Positions 2,024 through 63,560 are shown, numbered from the stretch's first letter. The stretch is DNA of 64,000 nucleotides from a virus (IMGVR_UViG_3300031251_000011:1-64000), one strand, 5' to 3'. Notes: generated by a model not told the origin, from the sequence alone. Program-made: numbers and translations.

Positions 2024-2617
2024 ATGAACAATTCCAAAGAGAGGACCGACGCAGCGGCGGCGCTCGGCCTCGACGACGGCCGCCTGCGCAAGCTCGCGCT
2101 CGTGCCGGTCGACGCGAGCAACGACGAGATCAAGCTGATGGCGGAGCAGCTGCTGCGCTACCGGCGCGAGCCCCGCCACCCCGACGTGTTCGGCGACGTG
2201 GGCGCGTTCCACAGCAAGTTCAATCTGCCAAGGCACCCCGCCGTGAAGCCGGCGATCCAGGCCGTTGAGATCATGCAGTACCGGGAGAATTTCCTGCGCG
2301 AGGAAGTTACGGAGTTCAGCGAAGCGTGGGTCGCGGACAAGAGCTACGAGGACACGGTCGACGCGCTGGTGGACCTGGTCTACGTGGCGCTCGGCACGAT
2401 GCACTTCATGGGCGCGCCGTTCAACGAGCACTGGCGCGAGGTGCAGCGCGCCAACATGGACAAGGTGAAGGGCGACATGGGCAAGGCCCGCACCGCGGCG
2501 CTCCCCGGGATCGGTGAGGCGTTCGAGGTGGCGAAGCCTCCCGGGTGGAAGGGTCCCGACCACGGGCGCGTGCTGCGCGACTTCCTGTACGTCCACCACG
2601 ACAGGACCTTCCCTTAG
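2024..2617 (+). CDS. MazG-like / all-alpha NTP pyrophosphohydrolase
   Basis: FHSKF...LREEVTEF...DALVDLVYV...EVQRANMDK...KPPGW pattern (EExxE...D..D). Confidence 0.85.
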   Translation: MNNSKERTDAAAALGLDDGRLRKLALVPVDASNDEIKLMAEQLLRYRREPRHPDVFGDVGAFHSKFNLPRHPAVKPAIQAVEIMQYRENFLREEVTEFSEAWVADKSYEDTVDALVDLVYVALGTMHFMGAPFNEHWREVQRANMDKVKGDMGKARTAALPGIGEAFEVAKPPGWKGPDHGRVLRDFLYVHHDRTFP

Positions 2618-2693
2618 GCTGGAGACTAAGGGGCTTAGGCAGGAGTAAAGTCAGGGCGCTACCGTTGAAAACACTCAGAGCGAGGAAGATAAC

Positions 2694-3020
2694 ATGGACG
2701 AGAAGCGGACCAAGAACATGCTGAAGCAGAACCAGCTCTTCAGGCTGGGCGACCTGCTCAGACAGCACTGCAGCTCGGTGGACGGCTTCGCCGTCTACTC
2801 GGACGGCTGGAGCGACGAGCAGGTCGTCGAGACGCTGAAAGGCGAGTTCTCCCTGACCGTGAGCAACGTTGCGGGCCTGCGCAAGAGCCTCCTGGGCAAG
2901 TTCCCTCCGTCGACCGAGAGCGGAGGCAACGCCAGCAACGCGTCGCTGATGCGGAGAATCGAGGCGCTGGAGAAGTGGGCCGCGGCCCGCCCCGTAGCCT
3001 CCTTCAAGAGGGAGGGCTGA
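2694..3020 (+). CDS. Hypothetical protein
   Basis: 108-aa ORF with upstream GAGGA and genome-typical codon usage. Confidence 0.7.
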   Translation: MDEKRTKNMLKQNQLFRLGDLLRQHCSSVDGFAVYSDGWSDEQVVETLKGEFSLTVSNVAGLRKSLLGKFPPSTESGGNASNASLMRRIEALEKWAAARPVASFKREG

Positions 3021-3023
3021 CGA

Positions 3024-3251
3024 ATGCCAGCCAGAGCTGATCGTCTCATAGAAATGTATGGCGTCAGCGGAAGGAGCCTGTTCGGGGACCTCCCGGACCC
3101 GCGGCGCTTCCGTCCCCCTGCCTCCCCGGGCGCGCACCAAACGCTCCGGCAGGCGGTCCTGGCGCGCAGGCTCGCCGCGCAGGGTCTCGTCATGCTGGAC
3201 CTCCGCGAGGTCGAGCTGCGGCTGCTGGCGAGGGGCACGACCGATGGCTGA
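3024..3251 (+). CDS. Hypothetical protein
   Basis: 75-aa ORF tightly packed between neighbours. Confidence 0.5.
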   Translation: MPARADRLIEMYGVSGRSLFGDLPDPRRFRPPASPGAHQTLRQAVLARRLAAQGLVMLDLREVELRLLARGTTDG

Positions 3252-3417
3252 GAAGAAGGTCAAGCGCACGGCCCGCCACCTGGCCGAGAGCCCCGGGAAC
3301 GCGAGAGCCGTCATCACCGCGTGCGGGGCCTACGTCCTGACAACGCGGACAAGCCAGAACGTCGACGAGGTCATCTGCCGCGAGTGCAGGCTGAGCAAAG
3401 CCAATGCCGACGCGTAA
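3244..3417 (+). CDS. Small putative zinc-binding protein (H..CG..CxxC)
   Basis: MAEKKVKRTARHL...TACG...VICREC; GAGGGG upstream. Confidence 0.6.
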   Translation: MAEKKVKRTARHLAESPGNARAVITACGAYVLTTRTSQNVDEVICRECRLSKANADA

Positions 3418-3580
3418 ACGCCGCGAGGTGACGCACCTCGTCAAATGGCGCAGCGTGAGTTCACGGCGGTGCACGGCGTACTGTGGTTGCTTTACGCCTA
3501 ACGCGGTTCGGTTCACGTCTCTTGGCGTGAACTGCAAGAGATGCTTGAGAATTGTCAACGTGAAGGGAAGAGGCAGATGA
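3404..3580 (+). CDS. Small putative zinc-binding protein, similar to the preceding ORF (not in ORF track)
   Basis: Hand translation MPTRKRREVTHLVKWRSVSSRRCTAYCGCFTPNAVRFTSLGVNCKRCLRIVNVKGRGR*; stop overlaps the kinase ATG (ATGA 3577-3580). Confidence 0.6.
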   Translation: MPTRKRREVTHLVKWRSVSSRRCTAYCGCFTPNAVRFTSLGVNCKRCLRIVNVKGRGR

Positions 3581-4233
3581 GCAAGGACGGAGCAATTATC
3601 ATTCTTGAAGGTGCCGACGCAGCGGGCAAGAGCACGCTGGCGCTCGCGATCGGGGCCGAGGTGATCGCCCAGGGCTCGGATTTCCTGTACCTGCACGGGC
3701 AGCCGTGGCCTGGCGTAGTTTACAAAGAACATTGCCGTATGCGGGACCACTCCATCGCCGCGGCGAACGCCGGAGCGGTCGCCGTGTTGGATCACTTTTG
3801 GATCGCAGAAAACCTGTACGGAACGGAGTACAGGGGGGCGCCCGCGTACGACCCGGCCAACATCGACGCCGAGATGCGCTCGGTCGGTGCCCTGCTCGTG
3901 CTCTGCGTCCCCACCAACCTGTCGGCCCAGGTCGCGCGGCACGCCGAGCGCCACGCGAGAGGCAAGGAGCACTTCGACCGCGCTTCCGGCATCATCGCGC
4001 GCTACGCCGAGCTGTGCGCCGGCAACGCCGACAAGAAGGGCGACGGCTACCTCGACGTGATCACACGTCGCTGCCGCTTCTTCCACCGCGACGACACCAT
4101 GCACTACGACATGGACCACCACAAGCCCGACTTCTGGGCGAAGCAGCTCGTCACCAACGGCCGCGACTTCCGGCGGATCAAGATGCAACCGAGCTATCAG
4201 GCGCATTCTGTGAAGACAGGCGGTGAAGCGTGA
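3577..4233 (+). CDS. P-loop deoxynucleoside monophosphate kinase (thymidylate kinase-like)
   Basis: IIILEGADAAGKSTLA Walker A; LDHFW at the usual DR position; adjacent to the TS homologue. Confidence 0.8.
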   Translation: MSKDGAIIILEGADAAGKSTLALAIGAEVIAQGSDFLYLHGQPWPGVVYKEHCRMRDHSIAAANAGAVAVLDHFWIAENLYGTEYRGAPAYDPANIDAEMRSVGALLVLCVPTNLSAQVARHAERHARGKEHFDRASGIIARYAELCAGNADKKGDGYLDVITRRCRFFHRDDTMHYDMDHHKPDFWAKQLVTNGRDFRRIKMQPSYQAHSVKTGGEA

Positions 4234-5123
4234 GCGCCGCGACGACGGCCTGGCGCAAGATGCTGTTCGACATTCTCGACGTCGGCTCCGAGGTCAAGCA
4301 GGTCAGCGCCGGCGCCGACTTCAAGGGCTCCACCAACAGGGAGCTGATCGGCTACCAGTCCCGCTGGCCGATGGCGATGCCGTCGGTGGCTTCGCCTTCC
4401 CGCAAGCTCGGCTACCGTTTCATGGCGGCGGAGGCCGCGTGGATACTTAGCGGAGACAATCGCCTCGCGACCATCGCGCCGTACACCAAGCACATGGCGC
4501 GCTTCTCCGACGATGGGCTGTTCCTGCGCGGCGCCTACGGGCCGCCGTTCGTGGAGCAGGTGAGCTGGGTGGCGGAGACGCTGCTGACGGAACCGTACAG
4601 CAGGCAGGCCGTCGCCACCATCTGGCGGCCGCGGCCCGGGCCGGGGAGGGATACCCCTTGCACGGTGGCGCTGCAGTGGCTCGTGAGGAACGGCGGACCG
4701 GGACACGAGATGACTTTGAACTGCGTCGCCACGATGCGATCGTCGGACGCATGGACCGGCGTGCCTTACGACGTCTTCAACTTTTCCATGATGACGGCGT
4801 ACCTGGGTCTCGTCATCAAAGACACGATCGCGCGTGAAGCCAGACGGCGCGGAGCACCGACTGTCGGGCGGCCGCCGAAGCTCGGCACGCTGATCCTTAC
4901 GGCCGGCTCTCAGCACCTCTACAAAGCGGACTGGGACGAGGCGCAGGCCGTCCTGACCGAGGCCGGGAGCAACGCCGAGGAGGCTGTGAACCTCTTCGAG
5001 CAGTCCCAGCTTGACCTCAACATGTTCTCAAACCCGCAGGAGCTTATCGACGCCCTGTGGTTCATCGCCCATCTGCCGTCGTCCGAGGCCGCGGGCGAGG
5101 CCCTGTCACGGTGGCACCCGTGA
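4230..5123 (+). CDS. Thymidylate synthase homologue, probably dCMP (hydroxy)methylase
   Basis: SRQAV, catalytic PCT, MRSSDAWTGVPYDV (Asp where ThyA has Asn), AGSQHLY. Confidence 0.85.
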   Translation: MSAATTAWRKMLFDILDVGSEVKQVSAGADFKGSTNRELIGYQSRWPMAMPSVASPSRKLGYRFMAAEAAWILSGDNRLATIAPYTKHMARFSDDGLFLRGAYGPPFVEQVSWVAETLLTEPYSRQAVATIWRPRPGPGRDTPCTVALQWLVRNGGPGHEMTLNCVATMRSSDAWTGVPYDVFNFSMMTAYLGLVIKDTIAREARRRGAPTVGRPPKLGTLILTAGSQHLYKADWDEAQAVLTEAGSNAEEAVNLFEQSQLDLNMFSNPQELIDALWFIAHLPSSEAAGEALSRWHP

Positions 5124-5653
5124 GGCCCGGCCGCGACGAGATAGGCCTGCTCATCGCCTCAGCCTGGGCGCTGAGGGCGACGTGCGGGAGAAGGCAGGTC
5201 GGCTGCGCGCTCTTCGACCGCGACGGGCACCTGCTGTCGACCGGCTACAACGGGCCGGCGAGCGGGCAGAGGCACTGCACAGATGAGCCGTGCCCCGGCA
5301 ACGACCCCGCGTTCAGGAGCGGTGAGGGGCTGAGCTTCTGCGAGGCGATCCACGCCGAGGCCAACGCGCTCCTGCGCTGCTCTAGCGTGGGAAGGATCGA
5401 CACTGCGTACGTCACGCACTCGCCGTGCCTGGACTGCGTGAAGCTCCTGCTGAACACCGGCTGCAAACGCATCGTGTTCCTGCAGGAGTACGCCCACGAC
5501 GCCGCGGCGAGGGAACGCTGGACCCGCGAGCCGCACAACGCGTACTTCAAAGGGCGCGCCGACTACCAGCCGCGGTTCCGGAGGTGGGAACACTTCGCGC
5601 CGACCATGGCTTTAATATCGACGGCTGAGCTGACGGACCTGAGAGGAGACTGA
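5120..5653 (+). CDS. dCMP deaminase (ComEB-like, Zn-dependent)
   Basis: RATCGRRQVGC, STGYNG, HAEANA, HSPCLDC; GTG start overlaps upstream stop. Confidence 0.92.
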   Translation: MRPGRDEIGLLIASAWALRATCGRRQVGCALFDRDGHLLSTGYNGPASGQRHCTDEPCPGNDPAFRSGEGLSFCEAIHAEANALLRCSSVGRIDTAYVTHSPCLDCVKLLLNTGCKRIVFLQEYAHDAAARERWTREPHNAYFKGRADYQPRFRRWEHFAPTMALISTAELTDLRGD

Positions 5654-5656
5654 ATT

Positions 5657-6085
5657 ATGAAGATCACCCTGTGCGGCTCGACGCGTTTCGTGAAAGCGTT
5701 CGCCGACTGGAATGCCGGTCTCACGCTCGCCGGCCACGTTGTCTACGGCCTGGCGATGCACGGGCGCCAGACCTCGGACAAAGGCAAGCCCGAGGAGCTT
5801 GAGCTGATAACGGACGACGAGAAGATCGTCCTGGACCTGATGCACCTCGCCAAGATCGAGGAGAGCGACGCGGTCGTGATCCTCAACGTTGACGACTACA
5901 CCGGCGAGAGCACGAAGCGCGAGCTTCGCTGGGCTCAGCTTCGAGGCAAGCAGGTGTTTTACCTGGAGAACGCGCGCCGCGGGGTCGGCGTGATCGGCGC
6001 CAGCGTGTGGCACATCTACTCCACCGATGACAAGCCTCTGCTGTCGTCGGCCGGGCGGAAATATTTCAAGGCGTACGGAGAATGA
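5657..6085 (+). CDS. Nucleoside 2-deoxyribosyltransferase-like (NDT/Rcl/MilB superfamily) protein
   Basis: ITLCGS...HLAKIEESDAVVILNVDDYTGESTKRELRWA...GKQVFY; strong GAGGAG RBS. Confidence 0.7.
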   Translation: MKITLCGSTRFVKAFADWNAGLTLAGHVVYGLAMHGRQTSDKGKPEELELITDDEKIVLDLMHLAKIEESDAVVILNVDDYTGESTKRELRWAQLRGKQVFYLENARRGVGVIGASVWHIYSTDDKPLLSSAGRKYFKAYGE

Positions 6086-6444
6086 ATTTACCTACGCAGC
6101 CCGGCTTCTACTGGGCCCAGTGGCGCGTGAGCGACGACACCGTTGCCGTCGCTCACGATTACACGCCAAGCCACCGCTGGGAGGTCATGTGGGTCGACAC
6201 GCCGTACGCTGACGACAGCCCGGAGAAGCTCATGTGCGAGATACCGGGAGTTCCCGGCCAGCACACTCTGGAGGGTTTCGTTTGGCACGGCTCGCCGCCT
6301 CTCCCCCTGCCCTCTCCACCTAACAAGCAGTTCGGCAGCGAGCGCGAGAGGCTGAGCAGCGAGGAGGCTTACCGGCTCTACAAGAAGATGACGCCTGACC
6401 AGCGCATCGAGAATTTTTACAAGCTGACGCGGAGGACGAAGTGA
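6082..6444 (+). CDS. Hypothetical protein
   Basis: Starts LPTQPGFYW; overlaps both neighbours by 4 nt. Confidence 0.7.
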   Translation: MNLPTQPGFYWAQWRVSDDTVAVAHDYTPSHRWEVMWVDTPYADDSPEKLMCEIPGVPGQHTLEGFVWHGSPPLPLPSPPNKQFGSERERLSSEEAYRLYKKMTPDQRIENFYKLTRRTK

Positions 6445-7370
6445 CGACAACGGCGAAGGTGGTGGCTGACAGCGTGAGCCCGCAGGGCAAGCGCCTGATA
6501 ACCTGGGTGACGCGTTATCCGTGGCAGATACACGGCGAGGTGATGACGCATCGCGTCTTCTCCCGCAACGCGTCGAGCAACCGCGCGGTGCCGATCGCCA
6601 AGATGCTGGAGGAGGTTCGCAACCCGGACCTGCGCGCTTACCCGTCGTTCGCCGTCGTCGCCGGAAAGGGGATGACAGGGGGCGAGCCGACCACTCCCAC
6701 GCAGAGGCGCGCGTTCCGGATGGCGTGGGACCAAGCCGCGCTGAAGGCAGCCGACGCGGCCGAGGTTCTGAGCACCCTGGGCGCCGCCAAGCAGGACGTC
6801 AACCGTCTGCTGATGCCGTTCACGCACGCCAACGTCATCATCACGGCCACCGAGGTCGACAACTTCTTCGGCTTGCGGCTCGACGCGGCGGCGGACCCGA
6901 CCATGCGCGAGCTGGCGGAGATGATGTGGTACAGCATGAAAGCGTCGGAGCCGAAGCCGCTGAAACCGGGCGAGTGGCATCTACCGTTCATCGGTGACAA
7001 TGAACGCGAAGCTGCTGCGTTCACCGCGATGCACGATGCTATGTTCGATCCGGTACAAGCTCTTGTAAAAGTATCCGTAGCCCGCTGCGCGAGGGTCTCT
7101 TACCAGTCCTTCGAGACCGGCAAGCTGTCGACCGTGGCCGAGGACCTGGCTTTGTATGACAGGCTTGTCGGCCAGCGCGTGCTGCACGCTTCGCCGGCGG
7201 AGCACCAGGCGACGCCCGATCAACTGGCTAAAGCCGCGCTGCCTTTGGTTGAAGGTGAAGTGTGCTGGGAATATCCTGAGGAGCATGGCAACCTCGTCGG
7301 CTGGCGCCAGCTCCGGAAGATGTTGCCCGGCGAGAGCAGGGCGCCGCTGCCCGAGGGATACTCGCTGTGA
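6441..7370 (+). CDS. thyX: Flavin-dependent thymidylate synthase (phage ThyX type)
   Basis: EVMTHRVFSRNASSNRAVP motif, KQDVNRLL, NFFGLR, ARCARVSY, HASPAEH. Confidence 0.88.
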   Translation: MTTTAKVVADSVSPQGKRLITWVTRYPWQIHGEVMTHRVFSRNASSNRAVPIAKMLEEVRNPDLRAYPSFAVVAGKGMTGGEPTTPTQRRAFRMAWDQAALKAADAAEVLSTLGAAKQDVNRLLMPFTHANVIITATEVDNFFGLRLDAAADPTMRELAEMMWYSMKASEPKPLKPGEWHLPFIGDNEREAAAFTAMHDAMFDPVQALVKVSVARCARVSYQSFETGKLSTVAEDLALYDRLVGQRVLHASPAEHQATPDQLAKAALPLVEGEVCWEYPEEHGNLVGWRQLRKMLPGESRAPLPEGYSL

Positions 7371-7819
7371 GCGCGCGGGTCGGGACGCCCTTGCAGGCGG
7401 TAAAGTTCACGCTCACGAAGTTCCAGGACGGGTTCGTCGGGGCCATGTTTCTGCGAGACTGGTTCAGCGGCGCGCTGTCCGACGGGAGGTTCGAGGCGAC
7501 GCTGGCGCTCTTCACGAGCTTCTGCGCCGCCAACCCCGACGAGCCCGAGCGCGCTGACGGCCGCAAGGCCCACTACGGAAGCGGCAGGCAACCGCTCGAC
7601 GACATCGTCGACGCGGGCTGGGGGCCGGCCTTCTGCGCCGGCAACGTGCTGAAGTACATGCGGCGCGACAAGCAGGTCGAGGACAGCCGGAGGAAGGCGA
7701 AGTGGTACTGGGACAGGCTGTACGGTGAGAAGCCCACCGACGCGGGGTTCGAGGTGTTCGACCAGCTCGTGAAGCTGCTGACCGAGGACGAGCTGCGCTT
7801 CCTGACAGACAATGGCTAA
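7367..7819 (+). CDS. DUF3310 (T7 gp1.7-like) domain protein
   Basis: HYG...FCAGNVLKYMRR...ED..KAKWY. Confidence 0.75.
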   Translation: MSARVGTPLQAVKFTLTKFQDGFVGAMFLRDWFSGALSDGRFEATLALFTSFCAANPDEPERADGRKAHYGSGRQPLDDIVDAGWGPAFCAGNVLKYMRRDKQVEDSRRKAKWYWDRLYGEKPTDAGFEVFDQLVKLLTEDELRFLTDNG

Positions 7820-9851
7820 GAAGCCCCAGCGCTCCCTGCAGCTCCCCCTGTGGAAGCCGGCCACGCGCTGGCTCCCGCCGGAGGAGATGCCGAGCCTGTC
7901 GACCTGGCGCCCCAAGCGCATAGCGATCGACGTGGAGACGCGTGACCCTTCCCTTGCCGCGGACCTCGGCCCCGGCGTGCGCCGCGGCGGGTACATCGTG
8001 GGGCTGGCGCTCGGCATCGACCTTGGCCCGCGCTTCTACTTCCCGGTCCGCCACGAGGGCGGCGGGAACATGGACCCGAAGATGGTGATGGGCTGGGCTC
8101 GAGATGAGCTGAACAGCTACGAGGGCGACGTGGTTGGCTCGAACATCCTCTACGACCTGGACTACCTCGCCGAAGAAGGCGTGACGTTCGGTAAGGTGAA
8201 GGCGACGGGCTGGCACGACGTCCTGCTCGCTGAGCCGATGTTGGATGAACACAAAAGAGGTCGCTACAACCTCGACGCGGTGTCGCTGGAACACCTGGGC
8301 GAGGGCAAGGACGAGGAGGAGCTGCGCGCGTTCGGCCTGGCGTACGGCTGGAAGACGCAGAAGGAGGTCAAGTCGAACATCTGGCGGCTGAGCGGCCCGG
8401 AGGCGGGGACCTACGGCGAGGGCGACGTCGATCGCCCGCTGCGTATCCTTCCCGAGCAGATCAGGAAGCTGGAAGCAGACGAGCAGCTCCACTGCTACGA
8501 CCTGGAGCGCGAGCTTACCCCCTGCCTCCTCGCCATGCGCCGGCGCGGTGTTCGCGTCGACATGAACGCGGTCGACAGGGCGGACGTAATCCTGAAACGG
8601 GAGATCGCCAAGTGGACGCGGGCAGTCCAGAGACTGGCGGGAACCTCCGAGTTTGGTTCGGCCGAGAAGCTGGCGCCCAAGCTGCGCGAGCGCGGTCTGC
8701 ACTACGACATGACAGCGGGAGGCGAGAAAGCCAAGCCGAAGCCGAAGGTCGACAAGGAGTTCCTGGAGAAGAACCAGGGCGACGAGCTTGTCGACGCGAT
8801 CGCCATGGCGCGGCGGATGTTCACGCTGAAGAACACGTTCATCGACGGTGCGTTCCGGTCGTACGTTGTCAAGGGGCGCATCCATCCCTCGTTCAACCAG
8901 GCGAAGGGCGACGAGACGGGGACGGTGGGCTCGCGCTTCTCCGGGTCTGATCCGAACCTGCAGTTCATCCCGACGCGCGAGAGCGAGTGGGACGAGCAAC
9001 TCGACTTCGGAGACGCGGGGACCGTGTCGAAGATGATACGCGGCTGCGTATGCCCCGACGAGGGCGAGGACTGGCAGCGCGACGACTACAGCCAGGTGGA
9101 ATTTCGGCTCCTCGCGCACTTCGCCGTGGGACAGGGGGCGGAGGCTGCGCGCCAGCGTTACCGTGACGACCCGAAGACCGACTTCCACAAGCTCTGCGCC
9201 GAGATGCTCGGCGTCGACCCCGAGGATAAGGTCAAGCGGAAGCGCGTGAAGAACACGAACTTCGGACGTCTGTACGGCGCGCAGGTTCGGAAGCTGTCCG
9301 TAACGTTCAACTGTTCCGAGGAGGAGGCGCAGAGCTTCATCGACGAGTACGACCGACATCTGCCGTTCGCGAACAAGACGATGACGACGGCGGCGCAGTG
9401 GGCGCAGCGCCGCGGGTACGTCGTGACCGTCCTCGGGCGCAAGCAGCGGTTCCCGTTCTGGGTTCCGGCGTTCAACGGCCGCGGGAAGGTCCCGCTTCGG
9501 CTGGAAGAGGCTCGGAAGCGCTACGGCCGTTACGGCGACGACGGCGCGTGGATTTCGGAGCGGCTCGTTCGCGCGAAGGACTACGTGGCATTGAACAGGA
9601 AGCTCCAGTCTTCGGCGGGAGAGCTGATGAAGCTGGCGATGCGCGACGCCTGGCGCGCGGGCCTGTGCGAGCCGGAAGCCCTGGGCCCGCTCCTCGTCAC
9701 GGTGCATGATGAATTAGGAAGCTCGGTCCCAAAGACGAAGCGCGGCGACGAGGCGGGCAAAGAGCTGACTCGTATAATGACTAACGTCGCGGCACTGAAA
9801 GTCCCGCTGCTCGTCGACAGCGCGCGCGGGACGAACTGGGGCGACGTATGA
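7812..9851 (+). CDS. polA: Family A DNA polymerase with 3'-5' exonuclease domain
   Basis: AIDVET, NILYDL exonuclease motifs; RFSGSDPNLQ; motif A DYSQVEFR; motif B KNTNFGRLYG; motif C VHDE. Confidence 0.96.
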   Translation: MAKKPQRSLQLPLWKPATRWLPPEEMPSLSTWRPKRIAIDVETRDPSLAADLGPGVRRGGYIVGLALGIDLGPRFYFPVRHEGGGNMDPKMVMGWARDELNSYEGDVVGSNILYDLDYLAEEGVTFGKVKATGWHDVLLAEPMLDEHKRGRYNLDAVSLEHLGEGKDEEELRAFGLAYGWKTQKEVKSNIWRLSGPEAGTYGEGDVDRPLRILPEQIRKLEADEQLHCYDLERELTPCLLAMRRRGVRVDMNAVDRADVILKREIAKWTRAVQRLAGTSEFGSAEKLAPKLRERGLHYDMTAGGEKAKPKPKVDKEFLEKNQGDELVDAIAMARRMFTLKNTFIDGAFRSYVVKGRIHPSFNQAKGDETGTVGSRFSGSDPNLQFIPTRESEWDEQLDFGDAGTVSKMIRGCVCPDEGEDWQRDDYSQVEFRLLAHFAVGQGAEAARQRYRDDPKTDFHKLCAEMLGVDPEDKVKRKRVKNTNFGRLYGAQVRKLSVTFNCSEEEAQSFIDEYDRHLPFANKTMTTAAQWAQRRGYVVTVLGRKQRFPFWVPAFNGRGKVPLRLEEARKRYGRYGDDGAWISERLVRAKDYVALNRKLQSSAGELMKLAMRDAWRAGLCEPEALGPLLVTVHDELGSSVPKTKRGDEAGKELTRIMTNVAALKVPLLVDSARGTNWGDV

Positions 9852-10543
9852 AGTCTGATTATTACGTCTACCTCCTGTTCAGGGAAACCGGGCGACCTCT
9901 CTACGTGGGCCGCGGTCGAGGACGACGCTGGAATGTGCACGAGCAGACGGCGCTGACCGGGGACACTCACAGGGACCGCGCCGTGCGGAAGGTTCTCAAG
10001 GCGATCGGATCGGTCCCGAAGGTTAAGCTGAACGAAAACCTAACGGTTGAAGAAGCTAACGAGCTTGAGCGGCTGTGGATACGGACGATCGGACGGGAGC
10101 CTGCAGGGCCGCTGATAAACCAGACGGACGGCGGTGACGGTCTGACCAACCCTTCGGCGGAGGTACGTTACCGCTGTGGGAGCGGGAACAGAGGGCGGAA
10201 GTTGCCGGAGATCACGTGTCAGCGGATGAGCGCATCAAGGGCGGGCTTCACCCTCTCGCCGGAGGCCCGCGCGAGATGCGCTGCCACCAATAAAGCCCGC
10301 GGCCACAAACGAACCGCTGAGACAAGGGCGAAGATGAGCGCGGCCAAGCTGGGGAAGCCCGCGGCGCGTATCGGTTTCAAGCTGACTGAAGAACATAAAG
10401 CTAAGCTGCGCGGACCGCGAGGACCTCAGCCTAACATGCGAGGCCCGCGCGGGAGCTGGTTTCGGGGCAGGCGCGGAAATACTTACATTGACTTCGCCCC
10501 GCGGGAACGTGGCGACAAGAGAGGAAGAGGTAAAATAAAATGA
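9848..10543 (+). mobile_element. Free-standing GIY-YIG homing endonuclease with NUMOD3-like repeats
   Basis: YYVYLL...LYVGRG...R, E..ELE, NQTDGGDG, then ETRAKMSAAK / EEHKAKL repeats; less GC-biased codons than neighbours. Confidence 0.85.
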
Positions 10544-14989: not shown

Positions 14990-15187
14990 ATGACGACCCT
15001 CGCGCCCTACGACAGGCTGCTGCTCACGCGGCACCTGAAGTCGGCGGCGACCCACTACGACGGGATCGTCTCGACGCTCTGGAACGACCCGCGCTGCAAC
15101 GCGCACAGGCCGCTGATCGAGAGCTACCAGAAGCTCGCCGTCGAGGCGCGCACTTTCGTCAAGCGCCTGGAGGATGACAAGTCATGA
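14990..15187 (+). CDS. Hypothetical protein
   Basis: AGGAGGAG RBS; abuts neighbours. Confidence 0.7.
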   Translation: MTTLAPYDRLLLTRHLKSAATHYDGIVSTLWNDPRCNAHRPLIESYQKLAVEARTFVKRLEDDKS

Positions 15188-15903
15188 GCAACCGCCCGAC
15201 CAGGATCGACTTCTTCGACGGGACGGCCCACGACTTCCTGTCAAACTTCCACGCGGCAGAGCCGATCGAGTACGACGGCCGCCTCTGGCCGACGACCGAG
15301 CATGCGTTCCAGGCGATGAAGACACTCGACTTCAACTACAGGAGGAAGATCAGCCTCACGAAGGGTCCGGGCGCCGCGAAGGGCCTGGGCCAGCGGGCCG
15401 CCTTCGTCAAGCACGGCGTCGAGCTGCGCCCGGACTGGGACACGGTGAAGTTCGGCCACATGCTGGACCTCCTCCGGATCAAGTTCGCGCAGTCGAAGAT
15501 GAGGAAGTTGCTGCTCGGGACGGGCGACGCGGAGCTGGTCGAGGGCAACGTCTGGAACGACACCTGCTGGGGCGTGGAATACTTCCCGCGACAGAACGGT
15601 CGCCTGGGCGTCGGGACCAACCACCTGGGGCGTCAGCTGATGCGCGTGCGGGCGGAGATCAGGCCACAGATCAGAACCATGTGGCAGGTGACTGGCATCG
15701 GGTTTAACGGCTTCTACGAGCGCACCGTCGAGTGCAGGACCCTGGCCGGCGTGAGGAGGGCGGCGGAGAAGCTCGCGGCGAAAATGCGGGCGCCCCTCCT
15801 GTCTCCCGGAAAAATCACGGCCATGTTTTTGGGCGGGAGTTCAGACCCCCGCAGGATCGTCGGCGAGGGTGGGAGTTACGTGGAAGTGGAGCAGGTGAAA
15901 TGA
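15184..15903 (+). CDS. NADAR (YbiA-like) ADP-ribosyl hydrolase with C-terminal extension
   Basis: FLSNFH...WPTTEHAFQAMK...AKGLG...RPDWD...KF.Q...LLLGTGDAELVEGNVWNDTCWG...GTNHLGRQLMRVR. Confidence 0.93.
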   Translation: MSNRPTRIDFFDGTAHDFLSNFHAAEPIEYDGRLWPTTEHAFQAMKTLDFNYRRKISLTKGPGAAKGLGQRAAFVKHGVELRPDWDTVKFGHMLDLLRIKFAQSKMRKLLLGTGDAELVEGNVWNDTCWGVEYFPRQNGRLGVGTNHLGRQLMRVRAEIRPQIRTMWQVTGIGFNGFYERTVECRTLAGVRRAAEKLAAKMRAPLLSPGKITAMFLGGSSDPRRIVGEGGSYVEVEQVK

Positions 15904-61215: not shown

Positions 61216-62940
61216 ATGACCCCGCTCGACTACGAGCACTTCGGACCTGTCCCATACGAGTGGCAGGACGAGTGCCATGCAGCCACGGCCGAGGCTCTCT
61301 ACCATGCGCTGCTGTCTGAGCCCCGCTGCGGGAAGAGCAAGCCCATCATCGATACGGCCTGCTACCGTTTCCTGCTCGGCCGCTCCTCCCCCCTGTACTG
61401 CGACCTCGTCCTGATCGTCGCCATGCCTTCGGGCGCGCCCTGGAACTGGGAGCGCGTCGAGGTGCCGAAGCACTGTCGCCCTGATGTCAACCCGCTCTGC
61501 CTGACCTGGGAGAGCGACGAGGCTGCCGCTCGCACCGAGAAGGGCCGCCGCGTCTTCGGCTCCAAGGCCTGGCGCGATCGCCTCATCGACTTCGAGAACC
61601 ACGCTGGCCTCCGCTTCCTGCTGGTCCACGGTGAAGCAATTCTCACGGAGCCGTTCCTCGACCTGCTGCGCCGCCTCTTCCCCAAATCCAAAGTCATGGT
61701 CGTGGGTGACGAGTCTTCGCTGATAATGAAAGCGCCGCCCGGTCCCAAGCACGGCAAGCGCACCGCGAAGATGCACGTCATCAGCCGCCAGAAGACTGTC
61801 GTGTGCCGTCGCATCATGGACGGCACGCCGGTGGGCGAGGGACCTCTTGACCTGTTCGGCCAGGTCGGCTTCCTGATGCCCGAGCCGTTCGGCTTCAAGA
61901 CGTTCGTCGCGTTCCGCGCGCACCACGTCTCGATGGTTGACGGCACGGACTACGTGTTCAAGATCGGGCTGAGCCGCGGCGAGGAGGTGGCGCCCCTCTA
62001 CGGCTTTGAAGGAAAAACTGCAGCTGACTTCGCCGAGGCCTACGCGGTCCGTTCCGGCGGGAAGAGGTGGCCCGCCAAGGAGAAGGACGAGAGCACGGGC
62101 GAGGTCAAGTACAAGAACCTCGATGAGCTTGGGGCCAAGCTGGCGGAGTTCTCCACGCGGATAAAAAGGCGTGACGTCTACAAGAGCCACGAGAAGGTTT
62201 ACCAGAAGGTCTTCTTCGAGATGTCGCCTGAACAGAAGCGGGTCTACGAAGAATTGCGGTCAACGTATGAGGCCGAGCTTGAGGGTGGGAAAAGGGTAGA
62301 GGCTCGCAACGTTCTTGAACGGCTGATGCGCCTGCAGCAGGTGACGTCGAACTTCTACCCCGATCCTAAATCAGTGATCGCCTGCGGAAGCTGCGATGGC
62401 GAGGATGGCAGCTGTGAGACCTGCGGCGGGGCAGGCTACGTCGAGAGCAAAGGTCCGAGGACCATGCGTCGCATCGGGAACAGCAACCCGAGGCTGGAGG
62501 CCCTGGGCGAGCAGCTGACCGGAGAGCCGACCATCGTGTGGTGCCGCTTCCACCAGGAGATGGACGACGTGATGGGGCTGCTTCGTGAAAGAGGTATGGG
62601 CCCCGTCGAATACTCCGGCCGGATGAAGACTGCCGAGAAGCGCGAGAACGCCTTCGCGTTCCAAGAGGGCAAGGCCGGGAGCGTGGTGGCGACGCAGCGG
62701 AGCGCGGGTAGGGCGATCGCGCTGCCCGCGAAGATGATGTGTTACTACACGCAAGAATACTCGTTGCTGTCCAGACTGCAGAGTGAAGACAGAGCCGAGA
62801 TGCCAGGCAACAAAGAAGGTACGGGCGTTCTGGACTTGGTGGCCGTTGGAAGCAAAGACCTAGCCATCGTGCAAGCCCTCATAGGTAAACGTAGAGTGTC
62901 TGATGTAATCATGCGAGAGAGTTCGGGGAGCTGGCTGTGA
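61216..62940 (+). CDS. SNF2-like (SF2) helicase with inserted CxxC zinc finger; start uncertain
   Basis: YEWQ, EPRCGKS, GDESS, DGTP, DLFGQ, LMRLQQV, IVWCRF, QSEDR; CGSCDG...CETCGGAG insert. Confidence 0.88.
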   Translation: MTPLDYEHFGPVPYEWQDECHAATAEALYHALLSEPRCGKSKPIIDTACYRFLLGRSSPLYCDLVLIVAMPSGAPWNWERVEVPKHCRPDVNPLCLTWESDEAAARTEKGRRVFGSKAWRDRLIDFENHAGLRFLLVHGEAILTEPFLDLLRRLFPKSKVMVVGDESSLIMKAPPGPKHGKRTAKMHVISRQKTVVCRRIMDGTPVGEGPLDLFGQVGFLMPEPFGFKTFVAFRAHHVSMVDGTDYVFKIGLSRGEEVAPLYGFEGKTAADFAEAYAVRSGGKRWPAKEKDESTGEVKYKNLDELGAKLAEFSTRIKRRDVYKSHEKVYQKVFFEMSPEQKRVYEELRSTYEAELEGGKRVEARNVLERLMRLQQVTSNFYPDPKSVIACGSCDGEDGSCETCGGAGYVESKGPRTMRRIGNSNPRLEALGEQLTGEPTIVWCRFHQEMDDVMGLLRERGMGPVEYSGRMKTAEKRENAFAFQEGKAGSVVATQRSAGRAIALPAKMMCYYTQEYSLLSRLQSEDRAEMPGNKEGTGVLDLVAVGSKDLAIVQALIGKRRVSDVIMRESSGSWL

Positions 62941-63560
62941 AGAAATTCTACGTTTACGTCCTCTCTTCAAAAACTGTTGGCCCGTTCTACGTGGGCAAAG
63001 GTCACGGAGAACGCTGCAAGCTACATGAGCGTGAAGCTAAGCTGCGCGCTCCTACGCAGGACTCGGTAAACCCGTTCAAGCTGCGGGTTATCCGGAAAAT
63101 ACTGAAAGCCGGTGAAGAGGTTGACATCAAGCTGACATTCTACGTCACTGATACAGCGGCGTTGAGAGCTGAGAAAAGGCTTATAGCTAAGCACGGGCGC
63201 AGAGACATCAAAACTGGCTGTCTTGCTAACCTGACCGATGGCGGTGAAGGCGCGGCAGGTTACAGGCATACAGCTGAGGACAAAGTTGTATGCGGTAACT
63301 CATGGCGCGGCAAGAAGCGTCCTCCAGAATTCAGCGCGATGCTGAAAGCACGACGCGGGGAAAAGCGCAGTGACGTGACGAAAGCCCGACTGAAGGCTGC
63401 GCACAAACACAGAGACAAAGAGGCTTGGAAGAAGAAGCTGAGGGCCGCGTGGCGCCGAAGAAAGAAACGCGGCCCTATCTTCAGCGAAGAGGAGCGTCTT
63501 AAAATATCAACGCGCGTTAAGGAATGGTGGGATATTCGCCGAGGGATTTCAGCACCATGA
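62937..63560 (+). mobile_element. Free-standing GIY-YIG homing endonuclease
   Basis: FYVYVL...FYVGKG..ER, AEKRLI, LANLTDGGEG, basic tail; lower GC. Confidence 0.85.

Follow-up and report, generated by a model that had tools for sequence, protein, structure and literature searches.

In phage T4, the pathway to 5-hydroxymethylcytosine (5hmC) is divided among the gp42 dCMP hydroxymethylase, the gp56 dCTPase, the gp1 dNMP kinase, the cd dCMP deaminase, and td. The 5-methylcytosine (5mC) module of phages Xp12 and PaMx74 consists of a dCMP methyltransferase homologous to thymidylate synthase (TS), a 5mC-selective deaminase, and an NTP pyrophosphatase (NTP-PPase) (Yang et al. bioRxiv 10.1101/2024.12.05.627091); the relative AXL1 carries DHFR. 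Metavirome contigs with modified cytosine are enriched in a module made up of a TS homologue with Asp177, a deaminase, a PRA-PH protein, and PolA; in selecting such modules, MetaGPA targeted modification of cytosine rather than of thymine. The TS clade described here has its closest cultured carriers in Stenotrophomonas phage AXL3, Pseudoxanthomonas phage PW916, MW202510, and Pelagibacter phage HTVC119P. Outside phages, MilA/MilB and BcmA/BcmB pair a CMP hydroxymethylase with an hmCMP N-glycosidase in nucleoside antibiotic pathways.

The locus reported here is a phage gene set of this described type, for replacing cytosine in DNA with a modified cytosine; the literature already describes the module (Yang et al. 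2021, 2024), and there is no novelty in the idea. The source is the 75.8-kb (about 76 kb) genome of an uncultured Pam3/E217-like myophage, IMGVR_UViG_3300031251_000011, and the window, i.e., the whole stretch of DNA analyzed, is 64,000 nt long. Positions 2024 to 9851 form a single co-oriented gene run, as follows.

2024..2617, + strand: MazG/PRA-PH-type all-alpha NTP pyrophosphatase (PF01503, 2.2e-11; phrog_671, 1.4e-23)
2694-3020, + strand: small ORF, no assigned function (no Pfam or PHROG match)
3058-3417, + strand: small ORF, no assigned function (no Pfam or PHROG match)
3541..4233, likely start 3577, + strand: P-loop nucleotide kinase, thymidylate-kinase type (phrog_761, 1.3e-5; Atlas clusters)
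4230..5123, + strand: TS-fold enzyme, 297 aa, with a predicted cytosine-specific, hydroxymethylase-type active site (PF00303, 6.8e-15; residue signature)
5120..5653, + strand: dCMP-family zinc deaminase, HAE...PCxxC (PF00383, 8e-17; phrog_174, 4.3e-37)
5657..6085, + strand: NDT-superfamily protein (nucleotide N-glycosidase/deoxyribosyltransferase fold) of an uncharacterized family (AF2 and Foldseek)
6082..6444, + strand: 120-aa ORF, no assigned function, overlapping its neighbor on either side by 4 nt (no match in Pfam or PHROG searches)
6441..7370, + strand: divergent ThyX-family flavin-dependent pyrimidine C5-methylase (PF02511, 41.6 bits; phrog_85, 2.6e-69)
7367..7819, + strand: DUF3310-like protein (PF11753, 20 bits, below the 24-bit cut-off; phrog_236, 9.3e-6)
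7812..9851, + strand: family A DNA polymerase, PolA (PF00476, 5.6e-56)

All the genes named in a first-pass annotation (TS, ThyX, kinase, deaminase, MazG-like, NDT-like, DUF3310, and PolA) are thus present and co-oriented. From the kinase to PolA, neighboring genes overlap by 4 to 8 nt, with a 3-nt gap as the sole exception; the kinase stop overlaps the TS start, and the TS stop the deaminase start, each within a GTGA. Among 72 related viral loci (IMG/VR relatives), the deaminase directly follows the TS gene in 68, PolA lies near it in 67, and a MazG homologue lies upstream of it in 52; because this synteny recurs, the gene order is not due to chance. A kinase homologue is found in 39 of the 72. 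The two small ORFs between the MazG-like gene and the kinase have no homologue in these loci, and the coding status of the second (3058-3417) is uncertain. An antisense ORF at 2795-3238 shows GC3 similar to theirs.

The TS homologue scores 55.4 bits against PF00303 (cut-off, 24.3). Its two previously noted motifs, RSSDAWTGVPYD and GSQHLY, were located at residues 170-181 (nt 4737-4772) and 226-231, respectively, and the catalytic-Cys stretch, RDTPCT, lies at residues 140-145. Residues D141, C144, T145, D173, and D181 correspond to positions 143, 146, 147, 169, and 177 of Escherichia coli ThyA. In E. coli numbering, used from here on, the aligned columns E58, Y94, C146, R166, D169, H207, and Y209 are kept, and the protein also has M80 and Q127. 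The meaning of positions 143, 146, 147, 169, and 177 has been described, hydroxymethylases following the rule of an acidic residue at 143 and a retained Asp at 169 (Lee et al. 2026, PMC13326640). At 143/146/147/169/177, the homologue reads D/C/T/D/D, exactly as does T4 gp42. The corresponding residues are N/C/P/D/D in Xp12 and PaMx74, which make 5m-dCMP and have Trp80 and Arg127; E/C/T/N/D in RB69 gp48, which makes 5-hydroxy-dCMP; D/C/N/D/N in dUMP hydroxymethylases; and L/C/H/D/N in E. coli ThyA. The best PDB sequence match is the CMP hydroxymethylase MilA (1e-17), with Asp aligned at both 143 and 177. Asp177 is kept in all 119 of the nearest database homologues and in 72/72 IMG/VR relatives; Asp143 and Thr147 are likewise fixed across the clade, and the catalytic residues are retained. 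Judged by these residues, the assignment of the TS homologue as cytosine-specific through the Asp at the Asn177 position stands, and the enzyme is a predicted 5-hydroxymethyl-dCMP synthase.

Other assignments for this protein fit less well. A canonical dTMP synthase would have N177, H147, a hydrophobic residue at 143, and W80, versus D177, T147, D143, and M80 here, and the score against the NCBIfam equivalog model TIGR03284 is 37.6 bits, versus a cut-off of 108. A 5-hydroxy-dCMP synthase of the RB69 gp48 type requires D169N, which the alignment shows for gp48 itself, whereas the homologue has Asp169. It is also extremely improbable that no DNA modification is involved and that the locus provides ordinary nucleotide salvage and dTMP supply, with a thymidylate synthase that is either redundant or inactive. 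These genes are indeed labeled as thymidylate pathway in databases and by the AXL3 authors, and the phage also encodes a class II RNR, but the clade-fixed Asp177, Thr147, and Asp143, the retained catalytic residues, the enrichment of the module in cytosine-modified contigs, and the resistance of AXL3 DNA to enzymes with G/C in their sites all speak against it.

In the tree, the query TS clade groups with all of the hydroxymethylases and the hydroxylase (SH-aLRT 91), apart from Xp12 and PaMx74, which form a separate branch (support, 99) splitting off beside canonical TS. This placement is soft, since T4 gp42, situated in an unresolved fork, and RB69 gp48 are both on very long branches. In one relative (L046), genes for a carbamoyltransferase, PRA-PH, an ORF, TS, and the deaminase follow one another in a row. 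The characterized carbamoyltransferase of that family is specific for 5hmC; the enzyme needs a hydroxyl group, and so its position directly before the module favors hydroxymethylation.

The cultured relatives also bear on the product. The AXL3 TS is 42% identical to the query and has an identical signature, and the gene order in the AXL3 group is NTP-PPase, kinase, TS, deaminase; ThyX is present in AXL3 and PW916 as well. The group differs in virion type and genome size and in having no C5 DNA methylase, and in AXL3, PW916, and MW202510 the module is preceded by a class-I SAM methyltransferase, no homologue of which was found in the query genome. AXL3 DNA is resistant to 35 of 37 restriction enzymes, KpnI and Eam1105I among them; resistance is at sites containing G/C, and A/T-only sites are cut. 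AhdI and KpnI cut the 5mC DNA of Xp12 to completion, whereas the 5hmC DNA of T4gt resists both KpnI and AhdI (Eam1105I/AhdI). AXL3 DNA therefore behaves like T4gt DNA and unlike Xp12 DNA, which favors hydroxymethylation, although the phenotype may not transfer to the query because of the AXL3 SAM methyltransferase. No published chemical identity for the AXL3 modification was found in the literature.

The evidence has to be weighed against its main competitor, an Xp12-type route, in which the TS homologue would make 5-methyl-dCMP, 5mC would replace C, the deaminase would turn part of the 5m-dCMP/5m-dCTP into dT, and a C5 methylase would top up residual C. In the Xp12/PaMx74 module, too, an Asp177 TS has a dCMP-family deaminase and a pyrophosphatase of the PRA-PH/MazG type as neighbors, with PolA encoded in the same genome. 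Asp177 alone is compatible with methylation, as ThyA N177D makes 5m-dCMP, and deaminases linked to Asp177 TS genes are often 5mC selective. The adjacency of TS and deaminase noted above, together with the presence of ThyX in only 3 of 50 clade genomes, is what a logic of methylating and then deaminating to dT predicts. Two further points count against 5hm-dCMP: five of seven assayed deaminase-linked metavirome TS enzymes, whose clade is not stated, made 5m-dCMP, and the rule for position 143 is for this clade a correlation, with Xp12 itself having Asn143 and no hydrophobic residue there. Nonetheless, we consider this route unlikely. An Xp12-type dCMP methyltransferase shares Asp177, but the query has Asp143, Thr147, Met80, and Gln127 where the two phages known to methylate have Asn143, Pro147, Trp80, and Arg127, and its clade lies on a different branch. 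The route would also make ThyX, absent from Xp12 and PaMx74, redundant, and it fits neither the resistance of AXL3 DNA to two enzymes that cut 5mC DNA nor the coupling of a clade member to a carbamoyltransferase. The first-pass annotation had allowed either 5-methyl- or 5-hydroxymethyl-dCMP; the signature at 143/147/169/177, the tree, and the relatives leave the methyl product less favored, and deamination of methyl-dCMP to dTMP, its stated alternative, is less likely given a signature that is not Xp12-like and the presence of ThyX. The modified base is most likely 5hmC rather than 5mC.

The neighboring genes supply candidates for the remaining steps. The MazG-like protein is proposed to be a dCTP (perhaps dUTP) pyrophosphatase, feeding dCMP to the TS homologue and keeping dCTP off the polymerase. 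The kinase, proposed to phosphorylate the modified dCMP, has only weak profile matches; its nearest Atlas clusters are viral and thymidylate-kinase-like (score, 0.97; TM, 0.76/0.87), and it gave no match at E<=1 to proteins of T4, Xp12, M6, ViI, or phiW-14. PDB matches of the deaminase are dCMP deaminases (2hvv, 8.9e-15; T4 cd, 1vq2, 1.5e-11), and it is 45% identical to AXL3 gp27. By the PHROGs label of phrog_236, "nucleotide kinase," the DUF3310-like protein is possibly a second such kinase. PolA has 35 to 38% identity to phage PolA proteins.

The ThyX-like protein is a divergent member of its family. It exceeds the PF02511 cut-off of 24.8 bits and has a confident AF2 model (pLDDT 92.6) with PolB and ThyX as top Foldseek matches (about 5e-5). 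Against TIGR02170, it reaches 37.6 bits, below the cut-off of 87.9, and matches only positions 66 to 205 of the 211 in that profile; no PDB sequence match was found. The motif is THRvfSRNaSSnR rather than the canonical RHRxxSxxxxSxR, its Thr being invariant in the family (THRxxSRNxSxxR). Family membership and fold thus bear out the earlier call of a separate ThyX, and its role as the dTMP synthase, from dUMP, is proposed.

The NDT-fold protein has no Pfam, NCBIfam, or PDB sequence match. Its AF2 model (pLDDT 88.6) has as top Foldseek matches BcmB (5.8e-4), NDT, DNPH1, and MilB, with modest TM values of 0.45 to 0.59 (about 0.5); nearly all of the top matches belong to the NDT superfamily (NDT, DNPH1/Rcl, MilB/BcmB), and the Atlas places it in a PF05014 cluster (0.92). 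Among 133 homologues, G7, S8, H27, D60, Y81, and G83 are invariant and E89 is present in at least 90%. The context of E89, G-x5-E-L-x2-A, resembles the motif of the superfamily, in which the catalytic nucleophile is a Glu.

In another reading, the hydroxymethylated cytosine nucleotide is only an intermediate: the deaminase would convert 5hm-dCMP or 5hm-dCTP to 5hm-dU nucleotides, to give 5hmU (or a 5hmC/5hmU mix) in DNA, or the NDT-fold protein would process the nucleotide as MilB/BcmB do hmCMP. Certain deaminases linked to TS turn 5hm-dC into 5hm-dU in vivo and also accept 5hm-dCTP; BcmB, MilB, and DNPH1, a 5hm-dUMP hydrolase, belong with hydroxymethylase pathways, either as partners or as analogues, and an NDT-like homologue lies within the module of a distant relative (L096). 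We regard this as very doubtful, since an NDT-like gene is found in only 2 of the 72 loci, ThyX and the cutting of AXL3 DNA at A/T-only sites suggest normal T, and MetaGPA selected for modified cytosine. The Mil and Bcm enzymes belong to bacterial small-molecule pathways acting on ribonucleotides, whereas the kinase, pyrophosphatase, and PolA context here indicates incorporation into DNA.

Outside the locus, the genome encodes a full-length C5 DNA methylase at positions 73905-75329 (PF00145, 2.5e-22; PC and QxRxR motifs) and, also at the genome end, an MBD4-like glycosylase. No glycosyltransferase, which the first-pass annotation had not seen in the window either, and no other 5hmC-decorating family was matched among the sizeable ORFs scanned in the 75.8-kb genome. 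Phages in nature seldom carry 5hmC without decoration, and this negative result counts against hydroxymethylation, as do the methylase and the glycosylase, a G:T-type enzyme; the pair fits 5mC DNA best, in keeping with the Xp12-type route. Complete replacement as in T4 is argued against by the C5 methylase, which would act after replication, and by the glycosylase, and no decorating enzyme was matched among the scanned ORFs; with the methylase encoded, replacement in this phage is probably incomplete.

The division of labor is nevertheless that of T4, with the same TS signature and with a dTMP synthase and a dCMP deaminase alongside. It differs in that the TS homologue is only distantly related to gp42, its clade carrying W80M and R127Q; the kinase is not detectably related to gp1; dTMP would be made by a ThyX-like enzyme in place of ThyA; the genome encodes a C5 DNA methylase, and no glucosyltransferase was matched among its scanned ORFs; and the genes form one compact operon adjoining PolA. 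What the sequences show is which genes are present, their active-site residues, the conserved gene order, and the placement of the clade; the substrates, the products, and the degree of replacement are inferred. Our best reading, which we hold to be probable, is pre-replicative 5hm-dCTP synthesis with dTMP supplied by the deaminase and ThyX; the residues and the published module support the route to a C5-modified cytosine (cytosine-specific TS, kinase, pyrophosphatase, PolA) put forward earlier. The MazG-like pyrophosphatase would convert dCTP to dCMP, and the TS-fold enzyme, reading cytosine through Asp181 (E. coli N177), would put the methylene of CH2-THF on C5, where water would capture it to give 5-hydroxymethyl-dCMP because Asp141 occupies the place of E. 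coli L143. The thymidylate-kinase-like kinase and then host NDP kinase would yield 5hm-dCTP for incorporation by the phage PolA. In a parallel branch, the deaminase would convert dCMP to dUMP and the ThyX-like enzyme dUMP to dTMP; the NDT-fold protein may hydrolyze an unwanted nucleotide.

A more elaborate arrangement, which we think quite unlikely, would combine two C5-modified cytosines, 5hmC made before replication by the TS homologue and 5mC placed at specific sites by the C5 methylase, with two policing enzymes. The NDT-fold protein, as a DNPH1-like N-glycosidase, would destroy 5hm-dUMP arising from action of the deaminase encoded in cis on 5hm-dCMP, and the MBD4-like glycosylase would remove T or 5hmU opposite G. 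If true, this would amount to a phage-encoded "sanitation" layer for modified cytosine, acting on both the nucleotide pool and the DNA, of a kind so far undescribed.

The source record, a 75,764-bp IMG/VR virus genome with a GC content of ~65%, is rated complete by CheckV, and its first 64 kb make up the window; a search of the phage collection for near-identical DNA gave no match. On the minus strand, the genes between 23.3 and 60 kb encode a contractile-tail virion resembling Pam3 and E217, with a DUF3383 sheath, a portal, baseplate J and Pam3 and E217 baseplate parts, and the plus-strand blocks carry replication and nucleotide genes. A Pfam screen of 33 pooled ORFs also placed NusG (1.8e-15) and KOW (9.7e-4) matches in the late-gene block (23587-60171, minus strand). 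All of the genes that the first-pass annotation had grouped into a cytosine-modification pathway are present at 2024-9851, co-oriented with PolA on the plus strand.

Genes of the module
2024-2617, plus strand: MazG/PRA-PH pyrophosphatase
Between the MazG and kinase genes, plus strand: two small ORFs without assigned function
3541 or 3577 to 4233, plus strand: P-loop kinase, thymidylate-kinase-like by PHROG and Atlas
4230-5123, plus strand: TS homolog
5120-5653, plus strand: dCMP-family deaminase
5657-6085, plus strand: NDT-like protein, 142 aa
6082-6444, plus strand: 120-aa ORF
6441-7370, plus strand: ThyX-like protein
7367-7819, plus strand: DUF3310-like protein
7812-9851, plus strand: PolA

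GTGA- or ATGA-type overlaps of 4-8 nt join successive genes from the kinase to PolA, with a 3-nt gap as the single exception, and this tightly packed unit is probably co-translated. Directly before the MazG gene lies a 609-aa protein (172-2001) with a C-terminal ADP-ribosyltransferase domain (PF03496, 7.6e-22; Alt-like phrog_802, 4.2e-12), and the same genome encodes a NADAR-domain protein (15184-15903; PF08719, 2.2e-23); the two may be a writer/eraser pair for ADP-ribosylation. Two homing-endonuclease-like ORFs with similar N termini, one directly 3' of PolA (9848-10543; NUMOD3, 9.2e-07) and the other after a SNF2-like helicase (62937-63560; weak LEM-3-like GIY-YIG match, 2.6e-4), have GC3 values of 0.68 and 0.56, respectively, compared to ~0.85-0.9 in their neighbors, and look like recent mobile insertions.

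We aligned the TS homolog with reference enzymes from public records that make dTMP (E. coli ThyA and RB69 td), 5hm-dCMP (T4 gp42), 5m-dCMP (PaMx74 and Xp12, the product of the latter being verified in the literature), 5-hydroxy-dCMP (RB69 gp48), or 5hm-dUMP (SPO1 gp29, M6, ViI, and phiW-14). The two motifs picked out by the first-pass annotation fall at residues 170-181 and 226-231, and the Asp that it had read at the position of ThyA N177, as in T4 gp42, is there. At positions 143/146/147/169/177 (E. coli ThyA numbering) the homolog has D/C/T/D/D, identical to T4 gp42; the corresponding residues are N/C/P/D/D in Xp12 and PaMx74, E/C/T/N/D in RB69 gp48, D/C/N/D/N in the dUMP hydroxymethylases, and L/C/H/D/N in ThyA. 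Published work assigns Asn177 to uracil and Asp177 to cytosine, associates an acidic residue at 143 with hydroxymethyl products, and treats Asn169 as a mark of 5-hydroxylases (PMC13326640). The TS homolog keeps D169, and we rejected a 5-hydroxy-dCMP synthase for this reason. In addition, Met replaces Trp80 and Gln replaces Arg127, features shared with the dUMP hydroxymethylases and not with Xp12. Trp80 of ThyA shields the exocyclic methylene intermediate, so its replacement here would be consistent with water access.

The best sequence match among solved structures is MilA, a CMP hydroxymethylase whose Asp residues at 143 and 177 both line up with those of the homolog. The signature is a property of the whole clade: Asp177 and Asp169 occur in all 119 nearest homologs, Asp or Glu occupies 143 in 118 of them, and D143/C146/(T or S)147/D169/D177 is found in 72/72 IMG/VR relatives. 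We also built a maximum-likelihood tree, a comparison that the first-pass annotation had proposed, with the dTMP synthases as root: Xp12 and PaMx74 branch off first and the clade then groups with T4 gp42, RB69 gp48, and the dUMP hydroxymethylases (SH-aLRT 91); several reference branches are very long, and so this placement is supporting rather than decisive evidence.

The best reading of the module is a 5hmC route, which we regard as reasonably probable; the gene identities, residues, and synteny are observed here, and every substrate and product in what follows is predicted. The MazG-like enzyme would convert dCTP to dCMP, from which the TS homolog, with CH2-THF and water, would make 5hm-dCMP; the kinase would raise this to the diphosphate and a host NDP kinase to the triphosphate, for incorporation by PolA. 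In parallel, the deaminase would convert dCMP to dUMP and the ThyX-like enzyme dUMP to dTMP. Deoxynucleotides would be supplied by a B12-dependent class II ribonucleotide reductase (NrdJ type), which is encoded past the end of the window at genome 68271-70019 (L002:4271-6019, L002 being the remainder of the genome) and scores 478 bits against TIGR02504, above the cut-off.

Gene-order counts from 72 related IMG/VR viral loci revealed a recurrent order of MazG, kinase, TS, deaminase, and PolA, with the deaminase directly 3' of TS in 68/72, PolA nearby in 67/72, MazG in 52/72, and the kinase in 39/72; Yang et al. found this module enriched in cytosine-modified metavirome contigs. The main rival is a 5mC route of the Xp12 type, which we consider unlikely. 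The TS-deaminase pairing is nearly invariant, and a second thymidylate synthase is missing from most clade genomes (ThyX in 3/50), both as Xp12 logic predicts, because there 5m-dC nucleotides are deaminated to dT. Furthermore, when Yang et al. assayed seven TS enzymes linked to deaminases, of unstated TS clade, five made 5m-dCMP; the authors state that in silico prediction, for which they cite residue 177, had assigned this product to all seven. Against this route stands the N/C/P/D/D signature of Xp12 and PaMx74, compared to D/C/T/D/D here.

Two observations on relatives discriminate between methyl and hydroxymethyl. In one related locus (L046:7238-11259), a two-domain carbamoyltransferase (Carbam_trans_N + C), PRA-PH, a 175-aa ORF, a TS with the same signature, and a deaminase stand in one row, an arrangement tied to 5-carbamoyloxymethylcytosine (Yang et al. 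2021). The characterized phage carbamoyltransferase of this family acts on 5hmC and not on 5mC or C, and so the enzyme in L046 would need a hydroxymethyl product. The second is the cultured Stenotrophomonas phage AXL3, with a TS that is 42% identical, the same signature and gene order, and a ThyX. Its DNA was cut, out of 37 enzymes, only by TasI and Tru1I, which have A/T sites, and it resisted KpnI and Eam1105I, of which we take AhdI to be an isoschizomer. Fully 5mC-substituted Xp12 DNA is cut completely by KpnI and AhdI and DNA of the Xp12-like phage AXL1 partly by KpnI and AhdI/Eam1105I, whereas T4gt 5hmC DNA resists both; AXL3 DNA thus behaves like 5hmC or something bulkier, unlike plain 5mC. 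That DNA modification is absent altogether seems to us very improbable.

A class-I SAM methyltransferase (Methyltransf_23) lies just upstream of the module in 54/72 loci (e.g., L071:7542-8609, L003:4653-5477, and L004:4936-5832) and in AXL3, Pseudoxanthomonas phage PW916, and MW202510, but the present genome has no homolog. Its chemistry, as with the carbamoyltransferase, would depend on a base that offers a reactive handle, and the enzyme may decorate the modified cytosine. The earlier observation that the window has no glycosyltransferase extends to the scanned, sizeable ORFs of the 75.8-kb genome, in which no other decorating enzyme was found either, a point that counts against the 5hmC reading; among the matches of the general per-ORF Pfam scans there was likewise no TET/JBP dioxygenase.

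The whole-genome search for hypermodification genes suggested in the first-pass annotation uncovered a pair of genes at the genome end (73411-75329; L002:9411-11329). A 165-aa protein in the last 2.4 kb, beyond the window, has significant PDB sequence matches that are all MBD4 glycosylase domains (1.2e-5), and the end of its gene overlaps the start of a full-length, 474-aa C5 cytosine DNA methylase (PF00145, 2.5e-22; PC and QxRxR motifs). The closest relative, the 75.9-kb contig L028, has a C5 methylase, ART, MazG, kinase, TS, deaminase, ThyX, DUF3310, PolA, and exonuclease in one run, which indicates that the ends of our record split a single cluster. C5 methylases occur in 6/50 clade genomes and are absent from AXL3, PW916, MW202510, Pelagibacter phage HTVC119P, and Xp12. 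Full substitution of C would leave a C5 methylase nothing to do, so the likely explanations are that only part of the C is replaced or that the methylase has some other DNA as its substrate.

The NDT-like enzyme of the first-pass annotation (5657-6085) has no sequence-profile match, yet its confident AF2 model (pLDDT 88.6) best matches BcmB, a deoxyribosyltransferase, DNPH1, and MilB in the PDB, and Atlas points to the same superfamily. Use of the 5hm-dC nucleotide as an intermediate, toward 5hmU or a glycosidase product, is quite improbable in our view. The kinase, compared with T4, Xp12, M6, ViI, and phiW-14 as a possible 5-hmU DNA kinase or gp1 homolog, had no match at E<=1, and hence none to gp1 in the T4 record, a result that the low sensitivity of single sequences makes uninformative rather than negative. 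The separate ThyX of the earlier reading holds as to family, with a score above the Pfam cut-off and a ThyX/PolB fold; it falls far short of the NCBI equivalog cut-off, leaves the initial third of that profile unmatched, and, throughout its large phage family, has THR instead of RHR, and so its role as a dTMP synthase is putative. PDB sequence searches with the NDT-like protein, kinase, ThyX-like protein, and MazG gave no useful match.

Both the concept and the module are already published (T4; Xp12; Yang et al. 2021 and 2024 [bioRxiv 10.1101/2024.12.05.627091]; Lee et al. 2026), and the unusual extras here are the ThyX-like and NDT-fold genes within the operon and the adjoining C5 methylase and MBD4-like pair. 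Modified cytosines protect phage DNA from restriction enzymes and are relevant to phage therapy, to efforts to sequence or clone phage DNA, and to enzyme sourcing. The module introduces no new principle; it places, by prediction, a very large TS clade (thousands of proteins in the databases) with the hydroxymethyl rather than the methyl enzymes.
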